A program made the translations under genes and the position numbers. From contig CACHTK010000001.1 of the NCBI GenBank assembly GCA_902582765.1, forward strand, positions 5,870-69,869: a stretch of 64,000 bases of DNA, read 5' to 3'. Of the stretch, positions 1-15,888 are shown in pieces. This DNA is from an uncultured Pelagibacteraceae bacterium (lineage in GTDB: Bacteria; Pseudomonadota; Alphaproteobacteria; Pelagibacterales; Pelagibacteraceae). Position 1 is the stretch's first letter. Each line of letters opens with the position of its first letter. Below the pieces are notes generated by a model. It was not told where the DNA came from and did no database searches. It worked only from the letters and a program-made list of their open reading frames with translations.

Positions 1-4
1 ACAC

Positions 5-226
5 ATGGAAGTAAAAAAAAAAATGGAAGAAGCGAGAGCTCAATATGGAGATAGTGAAGGCTGTTACGTTTACCCACGAACACTCGAGGACAAACTTGGT
101 GAACCATTATCATTAAAAGGTTGGGATAATTGGGGTTATGATATTAAAGTTGTTGATGGATCAATCGTTGTAAATCATAAAAACAGACCTCAATCAAAAC
201 ATACTCAGTATAATTCAAAGAGTTAG
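5..226 (+). CDS. C-terminal part of a protein truncated by the window edge (unassigned)
   Basis: Frame is open back to position 2; coding-like composition; converges on the next gene; no recognisable motif in the visible 73 aa. Confidence 0.45.
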   Translation: MEVKKKMEEARAQYGDSEGCYVYPRTLEDKLGEPLSLKGWDNWGYDIKVVDGSIVVNHKNRPQSKHTQYNSKS

Positions 227-1115: not shown

Positions 1116-1266
1116 GTTTTTTGCTTTTATATTAGTCAAATAGATAAATTTCTAACTAAATACGTCATTTTCAAAGTTCTTGAGGATGTAAAAAAATATA
1201 ATTAGTTGAAAGACCCATAATGAACACGTTATACTATCTCTAACAATATTCTCAAGGGGGGAAATT

Positions 1267-2340: not shown

Positions 2341-2356
2341 AACAAATAAAAAAAGT

Positions 2357-2386
2357 GCTGCTAGCTATTAGCTGGCAGCTTTTTTT
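2357..2386 (+). terminator. Intrinsic terminator/attenuator-like hairpin between tctC and tctA
   Basis: GCTGCTAGCT...AGCTGGCAGC stem followed by T7 and preceded by an A-run. Confidence 0.7.
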
Positions 2387-4372
2387 ATGGAACAATTATT
2401 AGCTGCACTTTTTCAACTTTTTGAGCCTACTCATTTAGCATTTCTATTTGCAGGGACATTACTTGGTTTAATTGTTGGTATCCTTCCAGGTATGGGTGGA
2501 ACTTCAGGTTTAGCCCTTGTTTTACCTTTTGTTTTTACAATGGAACCTTCACATGCTCTTGCAATGATGATTGGAGTTTTGGCACCTACGACAACTTCAG
2601 ATACTTTTCCTGCGGTTCTTATGGGAGTACCTGGTACTGCAGGATCTCAAGCAACAGTGATGGATGGTTTTCCACTTTCTAAAAAAGGTATGGCAGCAAG
2701 AGCTTTGAGCGCTGCCTTTAGTGCTTCATTGCTTGGGGGTATCTTTGGGGCGTTTATATTATCAATATCTATTTATTATGCCATTCCAATAATAATGGCT
2801 TTTGGTTTTGGAGAACAGTTCCTATTAGTTGTGCTTGCTTTATTAATGGTTGGAGCTCTTACAGGTGACAATTTATTTAAAGGTATTGCCTCTTGTTTTC
2901 TGGGATTAATTATTGGATCAATTGGAACTGCTCCAATTACAGGAGATCCAAGATATACTTTTGATACATTATATCTTTTAGAGGGTGTACCCCTTGTTGT
3001 TGTTGGACTTGGATTATTCGCTATTCCAGAAATAGTTGGGTTACTTGATGCCAAAGGTTCAATCGCAAAATCACTTAATACTAAAAAAGGGTGGTTTACA
3101 GGTTTAAAGGACGTAGTAAAAAATTGGTTTTTAGTATTACGATGTTCTACTCTTGGTTGTCTAGTTGGAGCTTTACCAGGTTTAGGAGGAACTGTTGTTG
3201 ATTGGATTGCATATAGTCACTTAAAACAAACAACAAAAGATACTTCACAATTTGGTAAAGGCGATATCCGAGGAGTTATAGCACCTGAGTCTGCTAATAA
3301 TGCAAAAGAAGGTGGAGCATTAATTCCAACATTAATTTTTGGAATACCTGGTTCTGGTAATAAGGTTTTATTACTTGGAGGTTTTGTTCTAATTGGAATT
3401 GAACCTGGTTTAGATATGGTAACGACAAACCTAGATCTTACATATCTAATGATTTGGTCATTAGCTATTGCAAATATTTTGGGCGCTGGGATTTGTATGG
3501 GTTTTTCATCTCAAATTTCGAAATTCACTTTAGTTCCATATTATATACTTGCACCTGTCATGGTTTGTTTAATATTTTTTGCAACATTTAATATTAATAG
3601 GGACTGGTATGATTTTATTGGATTATTATCATTCGGTATAATTGGTATTACATTTAAAAACTTTGGTTGGTCAAGACCTGCACTATTAATAGGGTTCTTT
3701 TTATCAAGCAAAGTTGAACTTCTAAGCTATCAAACTCAAGCAGTGTATGGTTTAAGTTTTTTATCTCGTCCAGTTTCAATAATTCTTATAATATTGTGTC
3801 TTGCTACCATCGTTCTATTGACAAAACAAAAGTTTGACAACAACTATAGATCTGATCTTATTAAAGGTAAGCTTACTCAAATTTATTATATACTTATCTT
3901 ACTCTGTCTTCCGTTATCAATGATTTGGTTTACTAGTAGTTTAGATTATCGTGCTAATTTGTTTCCAATAAGTCTAAGTGTAATAGCTTTATCACTCTTG
4001 GTTTTTATACTTATTGTAAAAATTGCAGACTTAAAAAATTTACCATTTTTAAATAATACATTGATGAAGTTTGCTCGGTCAAATATTTTTGAAATTAGTG
4101 GGAACTTTAATAATCAACTTTTTTATTATTTAAGTTTTATTGGTTTCTTGTTAATGAATTTTATATTTGGTTTTCCAATTGCTGCAGCACTTTTTATTAA
4201 TATATTTATTTTATTTCATAATAGGAAAGCTTATTTGTCATCAATTTGCATTTCTGCTGCATTGATGGTAATACTCTGGTCGCTATCGTCCTTGCTAACC
4301 TTACAGTTTCCAAATGGATTGATAGGATTATTTGTCGATTTACCCTGGTGGCTAGGTGGACAACTAAATTAA
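2387..4372 (+). CDS. tctA: Tripartite tricarboxylate transporter permease TctA with C-terminal TctB-like fusion
   Basis: GILPGMGG, GVPGTAGSQATVMDGFPL, GVIAPESANNAKEGGALIPTLIFGIPGS motifs; about 160 extra hydrophobic residues ending in 'LTLQFPNG' (TctB-like). Confidence 0.85.
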   Translation: MEQLLAALFQLFEPTHLAFLFAGTLLGLIVGILPGMGGTSGLALVLPFVFTMEPSHALAMMIGVLAPTTTSDTFPAVLMGVPGTAGSQATVMDGFPLSKKGMAARALSAAFSASLLGGIFGAFILSISIYYAIPIIMAFGFGEQFLLVVLALLMVGALTGDNLFKGIASCFLGLIIGSIGTAPITGDPRYTFDTLYLLEGVPLVVVGLGLFAIPEIVGLLDAKGSIAKSLNTKKGWFTGLKDVVKNWFLVLRCSTLGCLVGALPGLGGTVVDWIAYSHLKQTTKDTSQFGKGDIRGVIAPESANNAKEGGALIPTLIFGIPGSGNKVLLLGGFVLIGIEPGLDMVTTNLDLTYLMIWSLAIANILGAGICMGFSSQISKFTLVPYYILAPVMVCLIFFATFNINRDWYDFIGLLSFGIIGITFKNFGWSRPALLIGFFLSSKVELLSYQTQAVYGLSFLSRPVSIILIILCLATIVLLTKQKFDNNYRSDLIKGKLTQIYYILILLCLPLSMIWFTSSLDYRANLFPISLSVIALSLLVFILIVKIADLKNLPFLNNTLMKFARSNIFEISGNFNNQLFYYLSFIGFLLMNFIFGFPIAAALFINIFILFHNRKAYLSSICISAALMVILWSLSSLLTLQFPNGLIGLFVDLPWWLGGQLN

Positions 4373-4384
4373 AAAAAATTTATA

Positions 4385-5179
4385 ATGACTGATGTTACAT
4401 TTCCAAATTTACCTTTCATAAAAAGAAAGGAAAAACCTCGGGAGACAGGTATAAATTATGTTAGAGCACCTGTAATGGTGGGAAATTGTATTGATGATTA
4501 CTTAGAAGCATATGCTGACCTAGTTGATATCTTTAAGATTTCTGGAAAACAAGGCGCAATGATGAGTAAAAAATCTCTTTTAAGGTTTATTGAAACTTGC
4601 AAAAAACATAGTGTTCAAGTTGCGCTAGGAAATCCAATTATGGACGTTGCATTATCTGGTGGTAAAGAAGTGGTAGATGATTATCTAGACACCGTTGTTA
4701 GTTTGGGCATTGATATTATTGAAATCTCTAGAATAGCTCGTTCATTAGATGATGACGAAATGTGTAGATTAATTGAAAACGCCTCAAGCAAGGGGATAAA
4801 AGTTATTAATGAGGTTGGTGTTGCGTTTGCACATTCCAAGGTTATTGAGGAAGAAATATTTATTGAAAGAATTAAAATGCAATCTAAAAGATTTCTTGAG
4901 GCAGGTTCATGGAAAATTTTACTAGAGTCAGAGGGTTTGACAGAAAATCTTGATACGAAAAATTATAGATGGAATACAATTGATAAAATTATTAGTCCAC
5001 TTGAGCTGAATCAATTTATGGTTGAGGCTGATGACCAGGATGTATTGTCAAAATACATAGAGATATATGGTCCAGGCATAAATATGATGGTTGATCATAG
5101 TAGAGTTCTCAAAATGGAAGATGCTCGAATAGGGTATGGACCATCACAATCTCTATGGGGTAAGGTTGTAAAATATTAA
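4385..5179 (+). CDS. Phosphosulfolactate synthase (ComA) family protein, divergent copy 2
   Basis: RKEKPRETGIN, DDYLEAYADLVDIFK, IIEIS, VINEVG, LEAGSWKILLESEG, YGPGIN match the ComA family pattern. Confidence 0.8.
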   Translation: MTDVTFPNLPFIKRKEKPRETGINYVRAPVMVGNCIDDYLEAYADLVDIFKISGKQGAMMSKKSLLRFIETCKKHSVQVALGNPIMDVALSGGKEVVDDYLDTVVSLGIDIIEISRIARSLDDDEMCRLIENASSKGIKVINEVGVAFAHSKVIEEEIFIERIKMQSKRFLEAGSWKILLESEGLTENLDTKNYRWNTIDKIISPLELNQFMVEADDQDVLSKYIEIYGPGINMMVDHSRVLKMEDARIGYGPSQSLWGKVVKY

Positions 5180-6891
5180 GCTAAATTAAATTTGAGTTGT
5201 AATTTTTTTAATATTTCATCATCAACATCATCCCATTGATTGAACTTCTTTTGTTTAATCATTTGTAAGGAAGGATAAGGGTTTATTTTATCAAACTCAC
5301 CCCACCTCCAATCTGGATATATATTAAAAATACCCCAAGTTTCTTTATTAAGGGAACATGAAAGATGAAGTACAGATGTATCTGCTGATATAACTAAATC
5401 CAAATTTTCTATTATAGAAGCAATTTCTACTAGATTATATTTTCCAAAATCTAATATGTTAGAATTTTCAAAATAATGCTTATCTCTTTCCCATATTTCA
5501 TTTTGTAATCCATAAAAGTTTATATCTAAAGATAAAATCTTGTCTAAACTTTTTAAAGGTACTGATCTAAAAGGCTGATTTGGACCATGAAAAGAACCTG
5601 ACCAAACTAATCCAACTTTAGGTTTAGAGTTATCAATCTTTTTACTCCAATTTTCTATTTGCACTTCATCTTTTTTAATCAAGATATCTTTGAAATCATA
5701 TTTTTCTTTATAAAAAAATTTAATTAATGAACCTAATGAAATTTTATAATCAAATTTCTTATCTTCCAGGGTTTCTATTGTTTCAATTTTTAAATTTTCA
5801 ATACCATTATTAAATAAATTAAAAATATTTTTACTTACAACAAAACTTACATTCTTAGATATTTTACAAAGTGAAATTATATATTTAGAAAATTGTATTG
5901 AATCACCTAAACCTTGTTCACTAAAAACAACTATGCTTTTTTTCTCTAAATTTTCACCGTTCCATTCTTTAGTTGAACTTAGAATATTCGTTAATTTTGA
6001 ACCCCTATATTCATAGTATTTCCATCCGTCTTCAAAGTTACCTTCATACAGAGATCTGATCCCAATATAATTATAAAAATTTCTATTATTCTTAAATTCG
6101 TCTCTGGAGCTATCAAGAAGATTTTTTGCATCTTTTTCATTACCCATATTAAAATAAAGACCAATAAGAGATAATTTAAATTTAAGTATATTTTTATTTG
6201 TAGATAGAATTTTTATTGCTTCGTCATATTCTTCATTAAGAATTTTATATTCTGCTTTATTATATAAAAATTCTATATATTTCTCATCTATGGTTTCTGC
6301 TAGTTTAAAAAATTCGTCTGATTTTTTGATATCTTTTAAATTAATATAATTTAGCAATAAATTATTAATAATAATTTTGTCATTTTTATTATAATTGTAA
6401 GCTTCTAAAAAAAATCTTAATGAAGTTTTAGGTTTATTATTTTTAAGGTATATACTACCTGCATTATTAAGAGCTTTTATTTTATTGGCACCATTACAAT
6501 CAATACATTTTATATAAAACTCTAAAGCTAATTTATTATTGTTATTTAATTCATGAGCATAAGCTAATTGATAATTATATAGATCAATTTCATTATTTAT
6601 TTCATAAAGTTTTTTTGCAAATTCTAAGAGTTTTTTTGGATTATTTTTTTTTAAATAAATTAAATATAAATTTTTTATTGGATCTTCAAAATTACTATTT
6701 AACAAATGTGAACTTAAAAAACTTTTTTCTGCAAGATCTAGGTTTCCTTCAAGAAAATTAATAACACCCTTAAAGTTGTTAATTAAATGTTTATTCTTAC
6801 TTTCTTCTTTTTCATATTCATTACAAAGATTAAGTGCTTTTACTAAATCTTTTGAGTTAATACTTTCTAATATTAACTTTAATTTATTCAT
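5176..6891 (-). CDS. TPR-repeat protein with C-terminal GT-B (family 9-like) glycosyltransferase domain
   Basis: N-terminal TPR helices; 'GWKYYEYR', 'WNGENL...EQGLGDSIQF', 'KVGLVWSG', 'LDLVISADTSVLHL', 'DWRW'. Confidence 0.8.
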   Translation of the reverse strand: MNKLKLILESINSKDLVKALNLCNEYEKEESKNKHLINNFKGVINFLEGNLDLAEKSFLSSHLLNSNFEDPIKNLYLIYLKKNNPKKLLEFAKKLYEINNEIDLYNYQLAYAHELNNNNKLALEFYIKCIDCNGANKIKALNNAGSIYLKNNKPKTSLRFFLEAYNYNKNDKIIINNLLLNYINLKDIKKSDEFFKLAETIDEKYIEFLYNKAEYKILNEEYDEAIKILSTNKNILKFKLSLIGLYFNMGNEKDAKNLLDSSRDEFKNNRNFYNYIGIRSLYEGNFEDGWKYYEYRGSKLTNILSSTKEWNGENLEKKSIVVFSEQGLGDSIQFSKYIISLCKISKNVSFVVSKNIFNLFNNGIENLKIETIETLEDKKFDYKISLGSLIKFFYKEKYDFKDILIKKDEVQIENWSKKIDNSKPKVGLVWSGSFHGPNQPFRSVPLKSLDKILSLDINFYGLQNEIWERDKHYFENSNILDFGKYNLVEIASIIENLDLVISADTSVLHLSCSLNKETWGIFNIYPDWRWGEFDKINPYPSLQMIKQKKFNQWDDVDDEILKKLQLKFNLA

Positions 6892-6942
6892 ATATAATCA
6901 ATTTAACTTTAAATTTTTATGCAATAATTTAAATAACAGTTC

Positions 6943-8163
6943 ATGTTAAATATATTAAATAAAAACATAAATTTAATTTCTTTTTTATTTTATTTTTTAA
7001 TTTTTACCTATGTTTATATCTTTTCTTTAAATAATATTATTAATCTTTGGACATTTAACGAACTTCATATCAATTATTCTGCAGGTTTTCTACCCAGAGG
7101 ATTGATTGGTACAATTATGCTTAAACTAGATAGTTTAGGTTTAGAAAAGAGAATTTTCTTTTCAAGTTTATTTTATATTTTTACAATTTTAAATTTTTTA
7201 TTATTCCTCAACATCCTTAAAATTAAATTTAAAAATGCTTTGATCTTTATTTTTTTTGTATTAAATCCAAGCTTTATACTCTTTAATTTTTATGATCTTG
7301 GAGGTTATGCAAGGTTAGAAATATTTGGTATTTTTTCATTATTATTACACACTTATCTTGCAATAATTGCTGATAGACAAAACGAAAAAATAATTTTTTA
7401 TAATAAATATTATTTCTTTTTAATATTTCCAATATTGATAGTGAATGTGCTTATTCATGAGGTAAATTTTTTTTTACTTCCATTTAATATAATTTTAACT
7501 TGGTTAACAATAACGAAACAAACTTCTAATTATGAAAAAATTAAATATTATCTCCCATACTTAATATTTATACCTATAGCATTTTATTTCTGGTTTAATC
7601 CAATAACAGCAGAAAAAGCACTATTAATTTTTGATCAAATTGAAAACAAGCAAAATATTAATGCATCAATTATAGAGTCAATTGGTATGCCTATTTTATT
7701 TAGAAGTGAATTTTCTTATATGATCAATCCCTTAACAAATTTATTTAAATATTTATTCATTTTTTTATTTTATCTTACTCCTGTTCTAATCATGTTTCAT
7801 TGGGTTGATCCTTTTACAAAACGTAAGATTTTTTTAAACATTTTAGTTATTTTGCCTCTTTTTTTATTATTTTATATAGGAAGAGATTGGGGTAGATGGA
7901 TACATATTATATTATTTGTAGTTTTCTGTATCAATATTTACTTAATAAAAAATCAGAATTACTCAATTTATAAAAATAAAATATTAGTTTTATTTTTTAC
8001 AATGTTAATTCTATTTCAATTTACATTTACTAGAATACCTCATTGTTGCAATTTAGTAGAAAAAAATATTAGTATTACAGGAGGAATCATATCAAAAATA
8101 ATTGTTTTTAATAATTTAATTAATAATAAGATTGATGTTAAGTCTCGGTTTAAAAGTTTCTGA
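6943..8163 (+). CDS. Polytopic membrane protein, possibly GT-C-like
   Basis: About 10 hydrophobic segments; NYSAGFLPRGLIG, IHE and DWGRW motifs; adjacent to a polyprenol-phosphate sugar synthase. Confidence 0.55.
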   Translation: MLNILNKNINLISFLFYFLIFTYVYIFSLNNIINLWTFNELHINYSAGFLPRGLIGTIMLKLDSLGLEKRIFFSSLFYIFTILNFLLFLNILKIKFKNALIFIFFVLNPSFILFNFYDLGGYARLEIFGIFSLLLHTYLAIIADRQNEKIIFYNKYYFFLIFPILIVNVLIHEVNFFLLPFNIILTWLTITKQTSNYEKIKYYLPYLIFIPIAFYFWFNPITAEKALLIFDQIENKQNINASIIESIGMPILFRSEFSYMINPLTNLFKYLFIFLFYLTPVLIMFHWVDPFTKRKIFLNILVILPLFLLFYIGRDWGRWIHIILFVVFCINIYLIKNQNYSIYKNKILVLFFTMLILFQFTFTRIPHCCNLVEKNISITGGIISKIIVFNNLINNKIDVKSRFKSF

Positions 8164-8175
8164 GCAGTTATTTAA

Positions 8176-8895
8176 ATGAATTTACAAAAATCAAATAAAA
8201 AAAAAATTTTAGTCTTTTCTGCTACTTATAATGAGGCTGAAAATATAAGTGAATTTATAAATTCAATTATAAATCATAATAGTAATGTAGAAGTTTTAAT
8301 CATAGATGATAATTCTCCAGACAATACATCACACTTAATCGAAGATTTAAAAAAAAAATTTCATCAAATTAATTTAATAACAAGAAAGGGGAAATTGGGC
8401 TTAGATACAGCTCATAAAGAAGCATATAATTATGCTCTGAAAAATAATTTTGATTATCTAATTACTATGGATGCCGATCTTTCTCATGACCCGAAAGAAA
8501 TAAGTAATTTTATAAGTTATTTGAATGATTATCCATTTGTTATTGGATCAAGATATATTGAAGGAGGCAAATGTGAGATGAAAGGTTTTAGGTTATTTAT
8601 AAGTTACTTTGGTAATAAATTTATAAAGTTTGTTTTAAAATCAAAATGTACAGAATTTACAACCTCTTATAGGGGTTATAATTTAAAAAAACTTATAAAT
8701 TTTAATCTAAATATTGTGAACAGTGCTGGTTATAGCTTCTTTATGAGTATTATATTTGAACTAGAAAGAAGAAATTTTGATATTAAAGAGATTCCAATTA
8801 CTTTCTATGAGAGAAATGCAGGCAAATCGAAAATTCAAAGAATTGAGATTTTTAGAACTTTGAAAAATTTATTATTAAATTGGTTTAAAAAATAA
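8176..8895 (+). CDS. Polyprenol monophosphomannose synthase-like GT2 (DPM1-like)
   Basis: TYNEAENI, IIDDNSPD, ITMDADLSHDP, VIGSRY, KEIPITFYERNAGKSK. Confidence 0.9.
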   Translation: MNLQKSNKKKILVFSATYNEAENISEFINSIINHNSNVEVLIIDDNSPDNTSHLIEDLKKKFHQINLITRKGKLGLDTAHKEAYNYALKNNFDYLITMDADLSHDPKEISNFISYLNDYPFVIGSRYIEGGKCEMKGFRLFISYFGNKFIKFVLKSKCTEFTTSYRGYNLKKLINFNLNIVNSAGYSFFMSIIFELERRNFDIKEIPITFYERNAGKSKIQRIEIFRTLKNLLLNWFKK

Positions 8896-8910
8896 TATGG
8901 ATTAATTAAT

Positions 8911-8957
8911 TTGTTCAATTATAAATATTATTATAAATAACCATGAAATTCATTAAT
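8911..8957 (+). promoter_or_regulatory. Probable native tRNA-Leu promoter/leader; related copies at 13787-13833 and 15756-15802
   Basis: TTGTTCAATTATAAATATT...CATGAAATTCATTAAT precedes all three tRNA-Leu 5' ends with a few substitutions. Confidence 0.55.
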
Positions 8958-8996
8958 GCCCTCGTGGTGAAATTGGTAGACACAAAGGACTTAAAA
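8958..8996 (+). repeat. tRNA-Leu 5'-half direct repeat, copy 1 (att core, attL-like)
   Basis: 39 nt identical to 15803-15841; identity ends exactly at the end of the anticodon loop CTTAAAA. Confidence 0.95.
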
Positions 8997-9122
8997 AACA
9001 TAGGGTAGAGTAATTTTATAGTCTCATACTGTCTCAGACAGTCTTAAATCCCATTAAATCCTACACTTTAAAAAAACCTTTAATTATTTTTATTGGAAAA
9101 TATGAATAATAAATTTTCTCAA

Positions 9123-9141
9123 ACTAGAAGTGGACTAGAAG
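9123..9141 (+). repeat. Left arm-type repeat pair of cassette 1 (ACTAGAAG-tgg-ACTAGAAG)
   Basis: 11-bp period; same motif at 13731-13750. Confidence 0.75.
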
Positions 9142-9170
9142 CTAGGTGGATATAATAATATACTTTATTT

Positions 9171-10382
9171 ATGAATTGGATGGGATTTTGGAGAGCGCTT
9201 ACAGATACCACTGAGATAACAGTTATAGTAGCTGTAATAGTATTTGTATTCACATACTCAATCTTTACTTATTTTTCTACAGACGCTGACAAAGCTCTTA
9301 GGTATGCTAGATTTACACCTTCATTACTAGTTTCGATTGGTATATTTGGAACATTCCTAGGAATATTTTTTGCACTAGTTGATTTTAATGTAAATAGAGT
9401 AGACGAAAGTATTCCAGAGCTTTTATCAGGATTAAAAGTTGCTTTTGGAACAAGTATAGTTGGATTATTTTTAAGTTTAGCCTTTAGAGCAATAATTTTA
9501 TACAAACCCAAAAAAATTAAATCTACTGAAGAGGCTGATGTAAAAGATCTTTTAGCAAAGATGACTGAGGTAAAAGATGCAATTTCTGCTGATAATGAAA
9601 GCTCAGTAATTACACAATTACAAAAACTAAGAAGTGAAACTATTGATAGTTTAAAGGAAATGCAAAAATCTTTCTCAGAATTTGCAGCTGAAATGTCTCA
9701 AAATAACGTCAATGCATTAATAGAAGCTGTTCAACAGGTTATGGAAGATTTTAATGCTAAAATAAATGATCAACTTGGTGAAAGTTTTAAAGAATTAAGT
9801 TCATCTGTTCAAAACCTTGTGGAATGGCAAAATAATTACAAGACACATGTTGAGACTTTGAATGATCAGTTACAAACAGCTATATCAGGCATTACAAGTT
9901 CTCAAGAGTCACTTAAACAGATTTCAGAAAATATGGAGAGCCTCCCTAAATCAACTGAAGCATTAAAAGAAATTATGACAACAGTACAAGGACAAATTGA
10001 TAATTTGAACAATCAATTAGATGCTTTTGCACAAATGAAAGATAAAGCAGTTGATGCGATGCCAACAATTGAGAAAAATTTAAATGAAATGACCGAAAGT
10101 TTATCAAATTCTGTATCTAGTATAGAAAATATGTCTACAGAAATAAGAGATAGCGTTAAACAATCTATTAAAGAGACAAACGATATGCTTATTAATCAAA
10201 TCAAAGGATTAGACGAACAAATGCAAAAGGAAGTGACCAAAATTGTAGAAATTATGGGATCAAATTTAGCATCATTGTCTGAAAAATTTGTTAGCGATTA
10301 TTCTCCATTAACTAACCAACTTGTGAATTTAGTAAATTCTCTAGGAAGTGTTAAGAAAAAAACAAACAAAAAACCTGAATGA
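9171..10382 (+). CDS. zorA: Zorya anti-phage ZorA (MotA-like membrane domain plus long helical tail)
   Basis: Three TM segments with PSLLVSIGIFGTFLGI...GLKVAFGTSIVG, followed by about 290 aa of coiled-coil-like tail; overlaps the zorB start (ATGA). Confidence 0.88.
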   Translation: MNWMGFWRALTDTTEITVIVAVIVFVFTYSIFTYFSTDADKALRYARFTPSLLVSIGIFGTFLGIFFALVDFNVNRVDESIPELLSGLKVAFGTSIVGLFLSLAFRAIILYKPKKIKSTEEADVKDLLAKMTEVKDAISADNESSVITQLQKLRSETIDSLKEMQKSFSEFAAEMSQNNVNALIEAVQQVMEDFNAKINDQLGESFKELSSSVQNLVEWQNNYKTHVETLNDQLQTAISGITSSQESLKQISENMESLPKSTEALKEIMTTVQGQIDNLNNQLDAFAQMKDKAVDAMPTIEKNLNEMTESLSNSVSSIENMSTEIRDSVKQSIKETNDMLINQIKGLDEQMQKEVTKIVEIMGSNLASLSEKFVSDYSPLTNQLVNLVNSLGSVKKKTNKKPE

Positions 10383-11080
10383 AATTAAAAGCATTATTTC
10401 AACAACAGGATGATCAAGACGACCAGTGGATATCAATTGCCGACATGATGGCTGGATTGATGATTGTTTTTTTATTCATAGCAATTGTAAATCTTAAAGA
10501 CCAAATTGATAAATTGAGAAGTTTTGAGATATTACAAGATAGAATTTATAATGAGCTTTATGATGAATTCGAAGATGATTTAAAAAAATGGGTAGCTGAA
10601 ATCGATAAAGAAACTCTAACAATCTCTTTTAGGGAGCCAAAAATTCAGTTTTCTACTGGTTCTTCAGAAGTTAAAAGTGAATTTAAAAATATTTTAAACA
10701 ATTTTTATCCAAGATATCTAAATGTTTTATGGGACTTTAGAGAGGATATTGAAGAACTAAGAATAGAGGGTCATACTTCTTCAAGATGGCAAAAAGCTTT
10801 AACTATTGATGAGGCATATATTAAAAACATGGGTCTATCACAAGACCGCTCGAAGAATGTTTTGATATATATTCTTGAACTAAATTTAGGAACTAACAAG
10901 AATTGGGCTAAAGAGAAGATTGTGGCTAACGGCATGTCATTCAGCAAATTGTTATTAAAAGAAAATGGAGATGAGGATGCAATTAGATCCCAAAGAACAG
11001 AGTTTAGGGTGAAAGTTGATAGTGCTTATATAATTGAAAGACTTAGAAAAGTTTTTCAAGAAAGAAAAAATGAAACTTAA
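10379..11080 (+). CDS. zorB: Zorya ZorB (MotB-like TM plus OmpA-type peptidoglycan-binding domain)
   Basis: WISIADMMAGLMIVFLFIAI with the conserved Asp; IEGHTSS, NMGLSQDRS, RTEFRV OmpA_C motifs. Confidence 0.88.
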   Translation: MKLKALFQQQDDQDDQWISIADMMAGLMIVFLFIAIVNLKDQIDKLRSFEILQDRIYNELYDEFEDDLKKWVAEIDKETLTISFREPKIQFSTGSSEVKSEFKNILNNFYPRYLNVLWDFREDIEELRIEGHTSSRWQKALTIDEAYIKNMGLSQDRSKNVLIYILELNLGTNKNWAKEKIVANGMSFSKLLLKENGDEDAIRSQRTEFRVKVDSAYIIERLRKVFQERKNET

Positions 11081-11963
11081 CCACACATTTCCAGAATTAG
11101 AAAGTTTGATCAATAAAATGGGTGCTAAAAAGACTGTTTGGAAATCTGGCGTTAAGTATGAAAAAATAATTATTCAAAAATTATTATCTGTTGAAGGTGT
11201 TGACGCGAAATTAGATGACATAAAAATGGATGAACATGGCTTGATGTATCTAAATAATGAGCCAGTGGTTCTTTTTATAAAAGATCAATGGATTTCGGCT
11301 GATGAAATCAGAAGAGATCCGCTTGGCGGAAAAGGATATAGATTTCATATAACTGGAACATGTAAAACAATTGAACAAATGCAAAGAAGAAAAAGGTACG
11401 ATAGATATACTTTTACAGCTAATCAAAGTGGTAAATTTTCTGTAATTGCAAGAGAATCCAAGCATTCAAATAAAAAAATTAAATTAACAACACCATTAGC
11501 AGTTTGTATGAATTGTTTAATAGATCTAGAATATGACGGAGCAGGCTACTCATCTTCCGGAAGACCAAACACTGAAGCACGACAAGCTAGAGATTCTTTT
11601 AATATAAAATCTTTTTTTAAAAATTTTGTCCAAACTTTAATAAATAGACCTAAATATTCTGAAATGAGTTATCCTGATCCAGAATATACTCCTGATTTTA
11701 GAACAACCTCTAAAAAGTTAAAAGAAGCGTGGGGTTATAAATGTAGTAGATGCAAGGTTGATCTTTCATTATTAAGTCACAGAAAAATGATTCATTGTCA
11801 TCACAAAGATGGAAATCCTGGTAACAATGGTGAGACTAATCTTGAGGTTTTGTGTATTTGTTGTCATGCAGAAGAAGGAATGCATTTAATTAGACCAAAA
11901 CATATGAGAGAACAATTTGAGAAATGCAAAACTTTAAAACAAGAACAGGGTATCAAAATATAA
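11070..11963 (+). CDS. zorE: HNH endonuclease, ZorE-type effector of type II Zorya
   Basis: C-terminal CSRC...HCHHKDGNPGNNGETNLEVLCICCH HNH/zinc motif; third gene after zorAB; ATG at 11070 overlaps the end of zorB. Confidence 0.78.
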   Translation: MKLNHTFPELESLINKMGAKKTVWKSGVKYEKIIIQKLLSVEGVDAKLDDIKMDEHGLMYLNNEPVVLFIKDQWISADEIRRDPLGGKGYRFHITGTCKTIEQMQRRKRYDRYTFTANQSGKFSVIARESKHSNKKIKLTTPLAVCMNCLIDLEYDGAGYSSSGRPNTEARQARDSFNIKSFFKNFVQTLINRPKYSEMSYPDPEYTPDFRTTSKKLKEAWGYKCSRCKVDLSLLSHRKMIHCHHKDGNPGNNGETNLEVLCICCHAEEGMHLIRPKHMREQFEKCKTLKQEQGIKI

Positions 11964-11972
11964 TTGATCAAG

Positions 11973-12013
11973 ACATTGCAGGATTTTATACGATAACTAG
12001 AACTTGAGCAGAC
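11973..12013 (+). repeat. Degenerate internal copy of the cassette right-end motif
   Basis: AGGATTTTATACGATAACTAGAA (11980-12002) matches 13715-13737 at 20/23 positions. Confidence 0.65.
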
Positions 12014-12077
12014 AAAATAATATGCTTTTTCTCTCTTATCTCTCGTACATAGAGATATAATATTATAGATTACCTTT

Positions 12078-12242
12078 ATGGACAAATTTGAAATTTCATT
12101 AATCCAAGCAAGTGAAATTATTGAAATGGGTAATGGAGAATTAGATAAGGGTTTAGAGCAGATTAATAAAAAAGGATGGAAGATAATAGATGATTTTATT
12201 GATCCGCACACTGGTGAAAAATATTTTAAAATTGAAAAATGA
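12078..12242 (+). CDS. Small 54-aa hypothetical protein (below the ORF-track cutoff)
   Basis: MDKFEISLIQASEIIEMGNGELDKGLEQINKKGWKIIDDFIDPHTGEKYFKIEK; TGA overlaps the next ATG (ATGA); TATAAT upstream. Confidence 0.6.
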   Translation: MDKFEISLIQASEIIEMGNGELDKGLEQINKKGWKIIDDFIDPHTGEKYFKIEK

Positions 12243-12625
12243 AAATTTTAAAATTAACATTTTTGTCAGTTCTATTTATAATATTATTACTTCCTGCATC
12301 ATGTTCGACAATTTGGTCTGTTAATGAAATTTTAGGTAGGAATACCTACGATAACCCTGCATTTAAAGATTCACCATTTTATACCACTAATGATGAAATT
12401 GGTTTTGTTACAGATTATTGTAAAAAAAATAACTATTTTGGAAGAACTGGAACTGAAGAAGAAAAACTAAGAAAATGTATAAGTGGGGAATTGAGAAATC
12501 AAAGCTTAGCCTGGATGTTGGATGGCTTCATGTTTTATTTTAGCTTGATTGTAATACCTATATTTCTCTTTTATCTTTATTTTTATTATAAATGGCTAAA
12601 AAAAAATTATTTTAAAAAAGCTTAA
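12239..12625 (+). CDS. Hypothetical membrane protein / possible lipoprotein
   Basis: N-terminal hydrophobic stretch ending in LPASC, two further Cys, and a C-terminal TM helix. Confidence 0.6.
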   Translation: MKILKLTFLSVLFIILLLPASCSTIWSVNEILGRNTYDNPAFKDSPFYTTNDEIGFVTDYCKKNNYFGRTGTEEEKLRKCISGELRNQSLAWMLDGFMFYFSLIVIPIFLFYLYFYYKWLKKNYFKKA

Positions 12626-12626
12626 A

Positions 12627-13709
12627 ATGAAAAAATTTTACCTATTCATAAAAGTTATGACTCTATTAACATTTATATGTTCATATTCATCGGCAGAAAC
12701 TTTTCAAAAAGAACTATCTCAATTAAATACACTTAATGATGTAACAAAATGTTTAAAAAATCATTTAAAGCCCATGGGTGAGAAAGATGCTAGAGCCTAT
12801 TGTATTAATAAAAATATAAAAAAAGTGGATGAATTAAAAAACGTTATACATGGGTGGGGTGAATGGACCGAGGGATCTAATGGTTTTTATAAGAGTTTTG
12901 GTATTAAGATTTCAAATTTACATCCTAATGTAATTTTTGGATCAATAAAAATAAGTATAAATTTGAAACCAAGTAAATCAGATTCAGGAGTCAAAAAGTA
13001 CGAAAAATACTTAGGAACAGGACAAAGTATTGAATTAGATTTTAACAATTTGTTTATAGATGAATACATCAAATTTCCCGAATATTCTTCTTTTATTTAT
13101 AATGATATATCTGATTTAAATATCCCAAATGGTGAAATATCAAGCTGGACCATATTAGAAGGCAAGGCAATAAAAATTGCTAATTATAAAAATATTTTTA
13201 TGAAAAATGATCTTGGTAATCTTGAAAAATGTATAAAATTTAATTCTAAACCAAAAGATTTTTTTAAAAATGGAAATCTTTTAAAACGTGTTGATATTAA
13301 ATCCGCATGTCTTTATGAGCTTAGTGAGCAAGATAATAATATATACGATAAACTAGATTTAAAAATTTTAAAGAAAAATGAAGAAATAGCAATTTCACTT
13401 GAAAATAAAATTGATAATGATTTTATAATTACAGCAGGAAATTTATTAATAGAACTCTCTAATTGTGATAATAAAAAAGCAAAAAAAGAAGGCGAGGATA
13501 GTGATAATATTTTTGATAAATATGGTACTTTCATTGAGGGCGTAACATCACCTGGATATTTAATGCGGCAATTTACAAAACATGAGTTTGAAAAATATTT
13601 AATGCCAGGTGAAAAATTTATAACACCATTTGCTAATTCTGATAGGAGCATGAAGTATTGTGATTACAAACCAGCCATTCAAACTGTGAGAATTTTAAGT
13701 ATAGAATAA
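12627..13709 (+). CDS. Hypothetical exported protein with apparent two-fold internal repeat
   Basis: Signal peptide (SSA-ET); Cys-pair helix plus beta-rich segment occurs twice. Confidence 0.65.
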   Translation: MKKFYLFIKVMTLLTFICSYSSAETFQKELSQLNTLNDVTKCLKNHLKPMGEKDARAYCINKNIKKVDELKNVIHGWGEWTEGSNGFYKSFGIKISNLHPNVIFGSIKISINLKPSKSDSGVKKYEKYLGTGQSIELDFNNLFIDEYIKFPEYSSFIYNDISDLNIPNGEISSWTILEGKAIKIANYKNIFMKNDLGNLEKCIKFNSKPKDFFKNGNLLKRVDIKSACLYELSEQDNNIYDKLDLKILKKNEEIAISLENKIDNDFIITAGNLLIELSNCDNKKAKKEGEDSDNIFDKYGTFIEGVTSPGYLMRQFTKHEFEKYLMPGEKFITPFANSDRSMKYCDYKPAIQTVRILSIE

Positions 13710-13711
13710 TC

Positions 13712-13833
13712 TATAGGACTTTATGGGATAACTAGAAGCAGACTAGAAGCCAGGGAGATAAAATAAAAAAAATTTACTTATTCCTCTTGTTCAATTATAA
13801 ATATTGGCATAAACACTCATGAAAATAACTAAT
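13712..13833 (+). repeat. Right end of cassette 1 (arm repeat pair, A-tract and tRNA promoter)
   Basis: Gap-free match to 15681-15802 at 103/122 positions by manual count. Confidence 0.9.
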
Positions 13834-13872
13834 GCCCTCGTGGTGAAATTGGTAGACACAAAGGACTTAAAA
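13834..13872 (+). repeat. tRNA-Leu 5'-half direct repeat, copy 2 (junction between cassettes)
   Basis: 39 nt identical to copy 1 and to the intact tRNA 5' half. Confidence 0.95.
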
Positions 13873-13999
13873 GCCGAGGGATAGAACTTTAAGTCAGTCC
13901 ATAGTAGTCCAAGGTAGTTTAAAATATCCTATAAAATCACATAACTTTAATTTAACCTTTAACAAATATAATAAAATTAAGCTGGTTTAATATCTCAAA

Positions 14000-14019
14000 A
14001 CCAGTACCAAACCAGTACC
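14000..14019 (+). repeat. Left arm-type repeat pair of cassette 2 (ACCAGTACC-aa-ACCAGTACC)
   Basis: 11-bp period; same motif at 15700-15719. Confidence 0.75.
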
Positions 14020-14041
14020 TAAAAAGATAATATGTAAAAAC

Positions 14042-15673
14042 ATGAAAAAAAATTTACTTATATTTTTATTATTTATTTTAAGTACCAGTATCTCTTTGGC
14101 AAAGAATGATGAAATTATAACTTTAGAAGAAATACAAGATAATCTCATTAAAATGGAAGTTGAGAATAATCGTATAAAATGGTTTAAAGGTGGAGAAACT
14201 ATCTCAGCAGCTGAAAGCATTTCATTAAGCGAGAAGAAACAAGAAAAATTAGAAAAAAGAAGTCATTTAAAAAAGTCTTCACAATCTGCATGTGAAGGTG
14301 GGTCATCAATGAATGATCCAGAATTACAAAAGATTTATTGTCCAGCGATGATAATTAAGAGAGTTTTTTCACGAAATGAAAGGGCAGAAATAAAAAGGCC
14401 TGGAGATATATTTTATGCATTATCAGCGATAGAACGACTAATTTTTTCAAGTAGTAATAAATTTGTGACTACGCAAGATGCATTTAAAAAAAATGGAAAA
14501 ATTTATTATATGTGGTCAGATTTTAACAATAAATATAACAAATACGATGGTCCATATGTGGAAGTTGGCTCAAAAGATAATTGTGTTAGGTGGTTATGGT
14601 TTTATGATAATCGATATTTGTGTACAGATTACTCTAAATATACATTAAAAAAACTAGAAAAATTTAAAAAAAATCCAAATAATGAAAAAGTCTTAGGGAG
14701 ATATCTAATTAAATATATCCATAACGTAAGATTAGTAAAAAGTATCAGAGAAAAAATAGGTACCTCAAATTATGATTTAATAGGCGATATGTTAAACGCG
14801 AGTGTCAAAGATGTAATTAAAATAAAAGTACCTTCACAAACACTTGAACGTAGAAAGCATCTAAAAGAATACTCCCAAATACTTTTTGATATCAAAAAAA
14901 AAATTGAGGAAGATAAGTTTAAATCAATAGATAAAAGTATTTCAAAATTATCAAAAAAATATAAAAAATTACAAAGTTTGAAGCCTAATTCTTACAGAAC
15001 AGATAAGCAAGTTGATGAAGCGATTGATCTAATTTTTGATTTAAATAAACTTATTGAAAAGAGCTCTTCAAGTGCTGAAGTAAATAAAGAAGATAGAATA
15101 ACTGCTATTGCCTCTATAGAGTTTATGGATTCGTTGATTGATTCAATTCTTAGTATAATACCAAAACAATATAAGAGTGTCCCTAATAAACAACTAGGCA
15201 AAGATTTATTTGATGATGATGATTTAGACGAACTAGAAAAAATCATAAATAACATGATAAAAAAAAACTATGTGATTAAAAATGCTAAAATGACATGGAG
15301 CAAGAATACAATTAATAAATATATTGATACATCTATTATATTAAACAAATTTGATCAGCTAGGCATACAAGACAGTCTCAACAGAACATTTACAGAAGAG
15401 TCTGCTTTAAATGTTGCGCACGAACATATTGATAATAATTTAGATAAAAAAATTTTTAAAGATGTCAAAAAGATTGTTGCAAGTGTTGATAGAGGTAAAT
15501 TGGATAGTATAACTAGAGAAGTATCTCAAACTACTAAAGAGGTATCTAAAATAGCTTCAGAAATGTCTCAAAATTCCACTTTTAAATCTACAGTAACCCA
15601 ATCATATCCAGATCCGAAATTTGGAGGACAAAGTTTAAAAAAACTAATAAGAGCAGGAATAATAAAAAGATAA
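14042..15673 (+). CDS. Hypothetical exported protein, helical C-terminal half
   Basis: Signal peptide (SLA-K); four Cys in the N-terminal half; Lys/Glu-rich helical C-terminal half; 543-aa ORF. Confidence 0.7.
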   Translation: MKKNLLIFLLFILSTSISLAKNDEIITLEEIQDNLIKMEVENNRIKWFKGGETISAAESISLSEKKQEKLEKRSHLKKSSQSACEGGSSMNDPELQKIYCPAMIIKRVFSRNERAEIKRPGDIFYALSAIERLIFSSSNKFVTTQDAFKKNGKIYYMWSDFNNKYNKYDGPYVEVGSKDNCVRWLWFYDNRYLCTDYSKYTLKKLEKFKKNPNNEKVLGRYLIKYIHNVRLVKSIREKIGTSNYDLIGDMLNASVKDVIKIKVPSQTLERRKHLKEYSQILFDIKKKIEEDKFKSIDKSISKLSKKYKKLQSLKPNSYRTDKQVDEAIDLIFDLNKLIEKSSSSAEVNKEDRITAIASIEFMDSLIDSILSIIPKQYKSVPNKQLGKDLFDDDDLDELEKIINNMIKKNYVIKNAKMTWSKNTINKYIDTSIILNKFDQLGIQDSLNRTFTEESALNVAHEHIDNNLDKKIFKDVKKIVASVDRGKLDSITREVSQTTKEVSKIASEMSQNSTFKSTVTQSYPDPKFGGQSLKKLIRAGIIKR

Positions 15674-15680
15674 AAAACAT

Positions 15681-15802
15681 TATAGGATTTTATGGGACAA
15701 CCAGTACCTGACCAGTACCTAGTGAGATAAATTAAAAAAATTTTACTTATTCCTCTTGTTGAATTATAAATATTAGCTTAAACACTCATGAAATTCATTA
15801 AT
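15681..15802 (+). repeat. Right end of cassette 2 (arm repeat pair, A-tract and promoter driving the intact tRNA)
   Basis: Colinear with 13712-13833. Confidence 0.9.
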
Positions 15803-15888
15803 GCCCTCGTGGTGAAATTGGTAGACACAAAGGACTTAAAATCCTTGCCATTTATGGAGTGCCAGTTCGAGTCTGGCCGAGGGCACCA
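15803..15888 (+). tRNA. tRNA-Leu (TAA)
   Basis: GCCCTCG/CGAGGGC acceptor stem, AAGGA-CTTAAAA-TCCTT anticodon arm, long variable arm, GTTCGAG T-loop, encoded CCA. Confidence 0.97.

Follow-up and report, generated by a model that had tools for sequence, protein, structure and literature searches.

Two cassettes between copies of a tRNA-Leu half

The window analyzed here is the whole 64,000-nucleotide stretch of contig CACHTK010000001.1, from an uncultured Pelagibacteraceae bacterium. ARAGORN found a single tRNA-Leu(taa) in the window, at 15803-15888, and nadK (NAD kinase by Pfam) starts 3' of it at 15893. Nucleotides 1 to 39 of this tRNA occur as exact copies at 8958, 13834 and 15803, while the same 39-mer gave 0 matches in 100 shuffles. 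The shared segment, referred to below as the core, stops at the exact 3' end of the anticodon loop. The spacings between the core copies are 4,876 nt (cassette 1) and 1,969 nt (cassette 2), and about 47 nt 5' of the tRNA are also duplicated at the first core copy. The features of the locus are as follows.

8911..8957, + strand: chromosomal (B-arm) copy of the tRNA upstream, promoter-like region; 38/47 positions match the cassette right end, and the right-end profile matches 8908-8956
8958..8996, + strand: core copy 1, nucleotides 1-39 of tRNA-Leu(TAA), exact match
8997..9170, + strand: left (P'-type) arm of cassette 1 (left-arm profile, E 7e-30; sequence; repeat table)
9171..11963, + strand: predicted type II Zorya anti-phage system zorA/zorB/zorE (PADLOC; weak Pfam matches to MotA_ExbB and OmpA)
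11977..12065, + strand: internal relic junction in cassette 1 (sequence; repeat family D3)
12078..13709, + strand: second cargo module of cassette 1, ORFs of 54, 128 and 360 aa (ORF list)
13712..13833, + strand: right (P-type) arm of cassette 1 (right-arm profile, E 2e-34; sequence; consensus)
13834..13872, + strand: core copy 2, exact match
13873..14041, + strand: left arm of cassette 2 (left-arm profile, E 4e-32; sequence)
14042..15673, + strand: 543-aa protein carried by cassette 2, signal-peptide-like at its N terminus (ORF)
15681..15802, + strand: right arm of cassette 2 (right-arm profile, E 7e-33; sequence)
15803..15888, + strand: intact tRNA-Leu(TAA) (ARAGORN; Rfam tRNA, 58.6 bits)

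The preliminary description of this DNA had reported three tRNA copies of which only the last is a whole tRNA, two units of these sizes with unrelated cargo and the same end architecture, and closely similar right ends. All of this was reproduced: the right ends (13712-13833 and 15681-15802) are identical at 103 of 122 positions without gaps. The left ends resemble each other in architecture (a gapped alignment is possible, and one profile matches both) more than in sequence: 56 of 145 positions are identical in the ungapped comparison. Arm profiles built from 33 cassettes matched both left arms (E 1e-29 to 1e-31) and both right arms (E 1e-32 to 1e-34) in the 958-kb assembly, and nothing there beyond the two window cassettes. 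As had been stated, neither unit encodes a recombinase, as judged by Pfam, PADLOC, PHROGs and tblastn with the large element integrases described below. No primase, helicase or polymerase replication domain was found in the two units either.

The left arm of cassette 1 contains three AGTCTC-like words with a 10-nt period (9020-9045), an inverted TAGGA-type motif (9046-9064), a remnant start codon with an 18-codon ORF (9102-9155) and two copies of the cassette-specific repeat ACTAGAAG (9123-9130 and 9134-9141), followed by GATATAAT. Next come zorA (9171-10382), zorB (10379-11080) and zorE (11034-11963), which lie on one strand and overlap or abut. PADLOC assigned them to ZorA2 (E 3e-88), ZorB2 (E 1.5e-74) and ZorE2 (E 1.9e-57), and adjacent zorA, zorB and zorE genes place the predicted cargo in type II Zorya.

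Downstream of zorE, a decayed right-end motif with one repeat unit (11977-12013) is followed by a relic left module, CTCGTACA plus GAGATATAAT (12040-12065); the promoter, the core and the remainder of the left arm are absent. Cassette 1 is therefore a composite, the fusion of two units, and its second module is similar to the G004 cassette. The 128-aa and 360-aa ORFs of that module had no match in Pfam, PADLOC or PHROGs, and the 360-aa ORF had no usable Atlas match. The right arm starts with a TAGGA-type motif (13712-13732) and contains two further copies of ACTAGAAG (13731-13738 and 13742-13749), GAGATAAAAT with an A-tract, and a predicted replacement tRNA promoter, TTTACT (13773-13778)-N17-TATAAA (13796-13801).

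Cassette 2 has the same layout. Its left arm carries AGTCC-type words (13892-13920), an inverted motif (13925-13943) and ACCAGTACC twice (14000-14008 and 14011-14019). Its right arm carries a TAGGA-type motif (15681-15701), ACCAGTACC twice again (15700-15708 and 15711-15719) and a predicted promoter, TTTACT (15742-15747)-N17-TATAAA (15765-15770). This promoter now lies 5' of the intact tRNA, the first 39 nucleotides of which are thus cassette-borne. The 543-aa protein had no match in Pfam, PADLOC, PHROGs or Atlas, and comparison with the element integrase revealed no relation between the two.

A family of cassettes and its integrase-bearing partners

The two units belong to a recurrent class, as had been proposed, which extends across Pelagibacter. 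About 40 cassettes of 1.0 to 6.4 kb were collected from 13 genomes and from metagenomes, all of them integrase-free. Among their varied cargo are metabolic operons and complete defence systems (Zorya II, GmrSD-type, Mrr-type, restriction-modification). Relatives have empty sites, which the preliminary description had suggested looking for, as well as 1 to 4 core copies at variable spacing. The 34 canonical cassettes from genomes and metagenomes share one architecture, and 70 of 72 cassette ORFs point in the direction of the tRNA strand.

Cassette-specific repeat words occupy fixed positions in the family (160-167 on the left, -102 to -104 on the right), and their spacing to the core is constant within about 3 nt in more than 30 cassettes. 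In total, 26 different words occur. Within a cassette, the left word and the right word share at least 7 nt in 26 of 35 cassettes (mean 3.7 and maximum 12 in 2,000 permutations), despite the kilobases between them, whereas the words across a junction, only 230 nt apart, match in 2 of 26 junctions. The unit of inheritance is therefore the cassette, as would be expected if right end, core and left end had once been contiguous in a circle.

One cassette is shared between species. AG-447-E20, a second SAG of a different species, carries the Zorya cassette of cassette 1 with zorABE 99.57% identical, while the flanks are 94.3% and 86.6% identical to those in the window and the neighbors and array context differ. 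The left arm is 88.5% identical to that of the window, and all four repeat copies have changed in concert from ACTAGAAG to ACTAGAAC. The segment corresponding to 11995-13683 is missing from AG-447-E20, a 1.69-kb deletion that matches the internal relic junction of cassette 1.

New here are rare integrase elements of 7.7 to 10 kb at the same tRNA-Leu core. They encode a 545-aa tyrosine integrase and a primase-helicase (AEP-TOTE plus DUF5906), and their arm layout is that of the cassettes. L083, a 7,799-nt IMG/VR viral-fraction contig, has a terminal overlap of about 97 nt and appears circular or concatemeric; its 545-aa integrase gene directly follows the core (PF00589, E 5e-5; phrog_1, E 4e-20), and its primase has 781 aa. 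Integrated elements adjoin the intact tRNA in G156, G211 and G249. The repeat words ACCAGCACA, ACTAGAAAC and CCTCGTACA are common to integrase elements and integrase-free cassettes, and the left arms of the L159 cassette and the G211 element are identical at 46 of 48 positions. In the elements, the left words are part of the integrase gene, falling within its first ~20 codons. In the mixed arrays G249 and L180, the repeat words of the integrase element and of the cassettes differ. The integrase-type element of L180 lies upstream of an integrase-free cassette, and under the insertion model it is therefore the older of the two.

On the other hand, TAGGA-type inverted motifs and a host-like P-arm promoter block are present in the integrase-free cassettes and absent from the integrase elements. 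The cassette arms are therefore not simply those with which the integrase evolved, and the cassettes form a lineage of their own. Of 401 genomes of the genus, only 12 gave a match to the large integrase. The preliminary description had suggested searching the rest of the host's genome for a tyrosine integrase; the large integrase was not found in that assembly (70.6% complete), which also had no match to PF00589. In relatives, the sole common tyrosine recombinase is a gene of about 325 aa located 86 to 95 kb away.

Proposed mobilization in trans and its alternatives

In the model that we favor, each cassette would have entered the anticodon loop of tRNA-Leu(UAA) through site-specific recombination by a tyrosine integrase, bringing its own tRNA nucleotides 1-39 and a replacement promoter, and later arrivals would have pushed older cassettes upstream. 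Every cassette would be in effect an opened attP. Its P' arm combines a phased triplet of AGTCTC words with a TAGGA-type motif and, 125 nt from the core, two 8-9-nt cassette-specific words. The cargo follows in the direction of the tRNA, and in the P arm both words return at a distance of 103 nt from the next core.

The shared core, arm layout and words make it probable that the cassettes are non-autonomous cargo units moved in trans by integrases of the 545-aa type, as partners of the rare autonomous elements that combine this integrase with an AEP primase-helicase. The integrase may read the repeated words as arm-type sites and excise and integrate the cassettes as circles, and transcription from the junction promoters may continue across the tRNA half to the cargo that follows. 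The earlier proposal of non-autonomous elements mobilized in trans thus gains a class, partner elements and shared cargo. The circle junctions that it predicted did not appear: the searches yielded neither an excised circle nor a same-allele junction for any integrase-free cassette, terminal overlap was seen in 0 of 80 metagenome loci, and the strict right-end pattern had no match in IMG/VR.

More tentatively, SAR11 may possess a two-part system of gene capture, in which rare cargo-less "driver" elements act with abundant integrase-less cassettes bearing a four-repeat address code read by particular integrase variants. Such a code would diversify in concert on both arms and faster than the cargo, it would overlap the first integrase codons in the drivers, and each cassette would donate a tRNA-type promoter driving the next one.

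The main rival of trans-mobilization is homologous recombination. The cassettes would then have entered site-specifically and would no longer be moved by any integrase, being reshuffled in the array and exchanged among cells instead, after DNA uptake, with the 100-175-nt junction blocks and the flanking core genes as regions of homology. These blocks (promoter plus tRNA half) are more than 90% conserved between cassettes and species, the integrase elements are rare, and metagenome contigs end at the junction repeats. Apparent products of short-repeat recombination are the cargo-less 267-nt unit in L153, the relic junction of cassette 1 with the matching AG-447-E20 deletion, and the G017 composite. 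Together with the left arms lost in G005, G008 and G425, the 267-nt unit and the composite cassette 1 indicate that ordinary recombination also shapes the arrays. In addition, the positional conservation described for SAR11 (10.64898/2026.10.07.757358) is compatible with homologous replacement. However, homologous recombination gives no account of four identical repeats changing in concert while the cargo stays 99.6% identical, of the constant spacing between words and core, or of words that match within a cassette but not over the closer junction, and we regard it as a serious but rather unlikely explanation.

It was also considered that the units may be integrase elements decayed in place by deletion of their integrase and replication genes, leaving ends that are scars without present function. 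Tycheposon islands do hold degenerated elements and scattered partial tRNAs (10.1101/2020.12.28.424599), the remnant start codon and short ORF lie where the integrase gene starts, and some leftmost units have lost the left arm. But fragments of an integrase or primase gene occur in 0 of 39 cassettes (101 kb), and most cassettes share one cargo boundary: in 23 of 34, the distance from the core to the start of the cargo is 201-238 nt. Neither the cassette-only arm features nor the matched repeat words changing in concert fit with decay, which makes this origin improbable.

The preliminary description had left open whether a phage or an element integrase mobilizes the units; partner elements with an integrase were found, and pelagiphages that use tRNA-Leu match in the core and not in the arms. 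Mobilization by integrases of HTVC105P/109P-type pelagiphages is very improbable, since the inverted motifs in the phage arms are of another type (GTAGCGGA) and the motifs of the cassette arms are lacking there, even though the phages have the same core, with an attP of the 39-mer plus 3-4 further tRNA bases, and likewise substitute the 5' portion of the tRNA (10.1101/410191). An HTVC105P-type prophage remnant was likewise rejected, as the match to the phage attP, which lies between the genes for integrase and RNA polymerase, is confined to the core, with no arm homology.

Relation to known systems

SAR11 is the most abundant group of bacterioplankton. Recent genome papers describe canonical mobile elements as lacking in SAR11 and the origin of its flexible genes as unresolved (10.64898/2026.10.07.757358; PMC11796062). 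This locus makes the question concrete and testable: attachment site and arms are defined, the repeat code of the arms can be read, and there are both natural cargo and a family of candidate integrases. If trans-mobilization holds, a streamlined genome would keep an exchangeable stack of genes without the cost of a recombinase in every cell. Combined, the arms and the integrase might also be developed into a tool for site-specific insertion in SAR11, whose genetic manipulation is difficult.

Partial tRNA repeats were already known from SAR11 islands, tycheposons and CIMEs. For SAR11 genomic islands they are described in PMC11796062, whose passages on the topic describe neither the anatomy of arms nor a repeat code, and neither integrase-bearing partner elements nor sharing between species. 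Integration of pelagiphages at tRNA-Leu(TAA) was demonstrated experimentally by Zhao et al. (10.1101/410191). The attB is the same and the incoming DNA again supplies the 5' part of the tRNA, but those are whole 40-kb podophages with a ~297-aa integrase beside attP and arms unrelated to cassette arms.

VEIMEs (virion-encapsidated integrative mobile elements) are small marine elements with a tyrosine integrase and a primase/helicase, and Pelagibacter is among their main hosts; about 20% lack an integrase, and it was suggested that these use one from elsewhere (Eppley et al. 2022, PMC9618062). L083 is an entry of a viral-fraction catalogue too. A term search found 0 occurrences of "tRNA" in the main text of PMC9618062, which therefore describes no tRNA-Leu arrays or arm architecture.

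Integron cassette arrays consist of small, mostly co-oriented units without a recombinase, as summarized in a passage of 10.64898/2026.04.03.716430 citing Mazel 2006. Recombinase-less units are stacked here too, and in the favored model new ones are likewise added at one end, with the recombinase encoded elsewhere. The "integron-like" label of the preliminary description is only an analogy, because there is no attC, attI or IntI: the cassette ends have no attC-like imperfect palindrome (Rfam finds only the tRNA), and no IntI, attI or Pc platform adjoins the array. Each cassette has instead a two-armed attP-like site and a promoter, and the candidate recombinase is on a separate mobile element.

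The tycheposons of Prochlorococcus, which like SAR11 is a marine bacterium with a streamlined genome, are integrative, tRNA-targeting elements with partial tRNA repeats and tandem stacks split by tRNA fragments; they carry niche or defence cargo together with a tyrosine (rarely serine) integrase and a primase/helicase module (Hackl et al., 10.1101/2020.12.28.424599). The window units, with their three tRNA halves, share the tRNA integration, partial repeats and tandem stacking, and the partner elements share the combination of tyrosine integrase and primase/helicase. Tycheposons are defined by their own integrase, and those with cargo keep the integration and replication modules, whereas the cassettes have neither. 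The host here is SAR11, and the integrase elements seen (G156, G211, G249 and L083) have no evident cargo.

CIMEs are cis-mobilizable elements beside ICESt1/ICESt3 of Streptococcus thermophilus, att-flanked, without recombination or transfer genes and in tandem with an autonomous element; their number is small and their size large, and they are regarded as decayed ICEs located at a gene's 3' end. The cassettes are similarly flanked by att sites of the integrase-element type (core, layout and words) and have no integrase. Unlike CIMEs, the cassettes are small, hold a single operon each and number in the dozens; their cargo boundary is uniform, their arms have features of their own, their repeat code has diversified, and they are inserted at a tRNA's 5' side.

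The tRNA-Leu array and its cargo

Three exact copies of the first 39 nt of tRNA-Leu(TAA), where chance would predict none, start at 8958, 13834 and 15803, and ARAGORN detected a single tRNA-Leu(taa), at 15803 to 15888. The preliminary description had recognized these copies, the units of 4876 and 1969 bp between them (unit 1, 8958 to 13833; unit 2, 13834 to 15802) and the identity of the two right ends at 103 of 122 positions, and all were confirmed, as was the lack of a recombinase domain in either unit in Pfam, PADLOC and PHROGs searches. Read directly from the sequence, the 3' boundary of the 39-nt core coincides with the final base of the anticodon loop. The repeat family (D1) is 175 nt long, and the repeated block extends 5' of the tRNA. 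When the assembly to which the window belongs (64 contigs, 958 kb, completeness 70.6%; the window is part of contig C1) was searched, no arm copies were found beyond the tRNA-Leu locus. The tRNA was the sole Rfam match in the conserved ends, and a consensus promoter scan, which AT-rich DNA makes uninformative, returned 49 sites against 43 expected.

Unit 1 contains a complete type II Zorya system as identified with PADLOC (ZorA2, E = 3e-88; ZorB2, E = 1.5e-74; ZorE2, E = 1.9e-57), with three further ORFs annotated without function downstream. The 128-aa and 360-aa ORFs of the unit had no match in Pfam, PADLOC or PHROGs, and Atlas gave nothing usable for the 360-aa ORF. Ten bases past the zorE stop codon lies a decayed right-end motif with one repeat unit, followed by:

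12040-12065, relic left module

The two relics inside unit 1 mark it as the fusion product of two former cassettes. Its second module is related to one cassette of G004, a genome of the same genus. Unit 2 has a single ORF, of 543 aa, whose start resembles a signal peptide; Pfam, PADLOC, PHROGs and Atlas detected no family for it, and a search of genome contigs found no close relative.

The left chromosomal flank of the array, 5176 to 8895, is itself variable between species. In the window it contains:

minus strand, 571-aa gene
406-aa ORF, no family
family-2 glycosyltransferase

In G004 and G425 (the single-cell genome AG-447-E20), a 264-aa gene homologous to window 4385-5179 lies directly at the array border.

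Anatomy of the cassette family and its doubled words

We collected 19 cassettes from 11 genomes of the same genus plus the window. A 51-nt right-end pattern recovered at least 19 more on metagenome contigs, and additional ones came from G249, another genome of the genus, and AG-447-E20. The canonical cassettes (n = 34 among the matches listed) are 1.0 to 6.4 kb long and share the following anatomy.

Features of a cassette, in order from the core
core
three AGTC(T/C)-type words with a 10- to 11-nt period
doubled TCCTA/TCCCA motif
about 50 AT-rich nt, including a remnant start codon
two 8- to 9-nt cassette-specific words, then GAGAGATAA and a TATAAT-like stretch
cargo
doubled TAGGA motif, the inverted complement of the left-arm motif
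both words of the left arm, repeated
GAGATAAAAT with an A-tract
TTTACT-N17-TATAAA, then about 30 nt to the next core

Among the matches listed, 70 of the 72 ORFs of at least 70 aa in canonical cassettes lie on the tRNA strand, and in 23 of the 34 the core start and the beginning of the first ORF are 201 to 238 nt apart. Cassettes almost never have cargo in common. Defense cargo includes GmrSD plus HNH, an Mrr-type 811-aa protein and a restriction-modification pair; metabolic cargo includes a HalD-like/dehydrogenase/aldolase/FrhB set and an MFS/GDPD/acyltransferase set; the remainder are surface proteins and many proteins of no known function. A conserved mini-ORF start, MKKLLGIVVLG..., ends several unrelated cassettes (L038 in G011, L041 in G018, L037 in G016, L051 in G021, and metagenome locus L180) and runs into the TAGGA-type motif at those right ends, as if a small signal-peptide gene fragment were part of the cassette platform.

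The doubled words lie 160 to 167 nt past the core start on the left and 102 to 104 nt ahead of the next core on the right. Among the matches listed, 26 of 35 cassettes have left and right words with 7 nt or more in common; 2000 permutations of the word pairing gave 3.7 such cassettes on average and never more than 12. There are at least 26 distinct words. At a junction, only about 230 nt separate a right arm from the next left arm, yet 24 of 26 junctions have different words on their two sides. Words that match within a cassette and differ between neighbors indicate that a matched set moves together with its cassette, as would be expected if both arms had once adjoined the core in a circular attP. 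Arm-type integrase sites of the lambda type classically consist of two phased copies per arm at a fixed distance from the core, and by analogy the doubled words resemble such sites in layout.

Among 36 genomes sampled from the genus, 24 had the 39-mer. Copy number ranged from one to three when up to 2 mismatches were allowed and reached four when 4 were allowed, and the spacings between copies varied throughout. The complete genome G013 has an unrelated region upstream of the tRNA, and G026 and G035 have the promoter block only; we read these three as empty sites. Most other loci examined had one or more cassette right ends. Metagenome junctions of a right end plus core led into the tRNA in 11 contigs and into another element in 22, among the matches listed. 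Thus the outcome that would have refuted the preliminary description, the same genes fixed in relatives and no empty allele, was not seen: the site has variable content and apparent empty alleles.

Metagenome contig L153 has a 267-nt unit (5819-6085) with both arms, a single doubled word and no cargo. It is either an empty platform or what was left when the two word modules recombined and the DNA between them was deleted. In G017 (L039, 4026-8321), two apparent units are one cassette, with left word ACTGGTAC and right word ACTGGTACC, split by inserted DNA in which a diverged tRNA half and a carbamoyltransferase gene are found.

Integrase-bearing elements and proposed mobilization of the cassettes

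In strain HTCC7211, tRNA-Leu(TAA) is the integration site of pelagiphages HTVC105P, 109P and 119P, which provide the 5' part of the gene (10.1101/410191). The attP of these phages includes the core and 3 to 4 further tRNA bases, and their arm motifs are different. We rejected pelagiphage attP regions (HTVC105P, HTVC109P and MedDCM S35-C6) as a match to the cassettes: the core is all that they have in common. An Xer-like gene of about 325 aa, 86 to 95 kb from the tRNA, was also rejected as the partner (PF00589, 401 genomes). It accounts for nearly all PF00589 matches and is present once in most of the genomes. The core and arm motifs were absent from all of the 30 best PF00589 loci. A tyrosine recombinase match, mostly single, occurred in 301 of the 401 genomes; about 325 aa was the commonest open-frame length among the matches listed, and the 86- to 95-kb distance from tRNA-Leu was seen in G013, G008 and G009. 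Both XerC and XerD are reported in a paper on Arctic SAR11.

When IMG/VR was scanned for the core, 23 contigs with several attP types were found. Four of them (L083, L098, L102 and L104) are arranged like the cassettes: on the upstream side, doubled words and GAGATAAAT stand about 75 nt before the core, and on the downstream side GGATTCACA precedes three AGTCTC words. L083 is 7799 nt long, and its terminal overlap of about 97 nt, which includes the core, indicates a circular or concatemeric molecule. It encodes:

545-aa tyrosine integrase, starting 100 nt past the core (PF00589, E = 5e-5; phrog_1, E = 4e-20)
781-aa protein, AEP primase/DUF5906
RusA-like protein

The C-terminal part of the integrase keeps the arginine, histidine and tyrosine positions. 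The left doubled word is contained in roughly the first 20 codons of the integrase gene, at a distance of 127 nt from the core. The corresponding distance in window cassette 1 is 126 nt, and that cassette retains a start codon and an ORF of 18 codons at this place. The 543-aa cargo protein of unit 2 is unrelated to this integrase despite their near-equal size. At least five attP types use the same 39-nt core (L083 to L105, IMG/VR), namely those of HTVC105P-like phages, the L083 type, the TACTTTAGCTAG and ACTACGAACAC types and the TCCAACAGGAC type with doubled words of its own; the tRNA-Leu half is a crowded attachment site.

The large integrase was found in 12 of 401 genomes of the genus. Its element directly adjoins the intact tRNA in G156 (8.8 kb), G211 (7.8 kb) and G249 (10.2 kb), and the accessory genes of the G249 element (T7-type SSB, PDDEXK nuclease) look like replication genes rather than cargo. 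Full-length relatives of the large integrase with 29 to 38% identity occur in L111 (G387), L113 (G200) and L114 (G198); no tRNA-Leu core lies within 1.5 kb of these integrases, and the family therefore probably also targets other sites.

The words of the G156 (ACCAGCACA), G211 (ACTAGAAAC) and L180 (CCTCGTACA) integrase elements recur on integrase-free cassettes elsewhere, and the L159 cassette has 46 of 48 bases of the proximal left arm and both word modules in common with the G211 element. In tblastn searches with four integrases and four primases, no fragments were found in 39 integrase-free cassettes (101 kb), and the sole match in 273 kb of metagenome loci was the L180 element, which has an integrase-free cassette downstream of it. 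Integrase-free cassettes also have TAGGA-type motifs and a promoter block of host-like type, both absent from integrase elements. These cassette-only features make the cassettes a separate class, not products of random deletion, the outcome under which the preliminary description would have taken them for decayed relics.

We propose that the cassettes are non-autonomous members of the integrase-element family, mobilizable by a large integrase acting in trans. They would have inserted successively at the intact tRNA, each supplying a 5' half and a promoter. Transcription from junction promoters may continue across the tRNA half and into the cargo that follows, which would fit the shared orientation of the cargo genes and their fixed start.

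Homologous recombination via the conserved junction blocks is the chief rival explanation of how the arrays change at present. The preliminary description had predicted circle junctions, and none were found in metagenome loci, junction words or IMG/VR: none of 80 metagenome loci had a terminal overlap, and the strict right-end pattern had no match in IMG/VR. The same word stood on both sides of 2 of 26 junctions, and the case inspected (G011) looks like related neighboring cassettes. Current mobility is further opposed by the rarity of the integrase, which was not found in the window's own assembly (70.6% complete), by the differing words of co-resident integrase elements and cassettes in G249 and L180, and by several products of plain recombination or deletion visible in arrays.

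Tycheposons are likewise tandem tRNA-bounded elements with degenerate remnants described (10.1101/2020.12.28.424599), and the report on VEIMEs notes integrase-less ones and suggests that they borrow integrases (PMC9618062). For SAR11, one sentence of PMC11796062 has partial tRNA repeats marking cassette insertion in four islands, and recent papers call the mechanism unresolved (10.64898/2026.10.07.757358). Literature searches on SAR11 with Zorya and on Pelagibacter tRNA-Leu integrative elements gave no account of this cassette system.

The Zorya cassette in a second lineage

The Zorya cassette of the window was also found in AG-447-E20 (G425), a genome of another species, with different neighbors on both sides.

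Comparison of the window with G425
zorABE: 12 differences in 2793 nt, 99.57% identity
region matching window 252-5183: 94.3% identity
tRNA-nadK-gcvT flank: 86.6% identity
left arm: 20 of 174 nt differ, 88.5% identity
right arm: 6 of 135 nt differ, all in or beside the word module

This comparison points clearly to a recent transfer of the cassette between lineages. All four word copies are changed alike in G425, from ACTAGAAG to ACTAGAAC, and the spacers are changed too. We rejected the idea that a platform swap produced the differences between the arms: the nearest relative of each arm is still the other Zorya cassette, and therefore no donor in the sample explains them. Divergence of the arms has thus been much faster than that of the cargo, yet within each cassette the arms still match, which is hard to reconcile with their being functionless scars.

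The G425 copy lacks window 11995-13683 yet retains the last bases of the 360-aa ORF, which marks it as a deletion derivative. The array piece in G425 (L253, contig C10, 2550-8719), where the window has 226-252, lies between homologues of window 2-225 and 252-5183 and consists of two older units, the Zorya cassette and a full right arm plus core. The junction falls exactly at the core 3' end, and the region matching window 252-5183 lies between two cores; the arrangement could have arisen by secondary-site integration of a multi-cassette circle or by another rearrangement.
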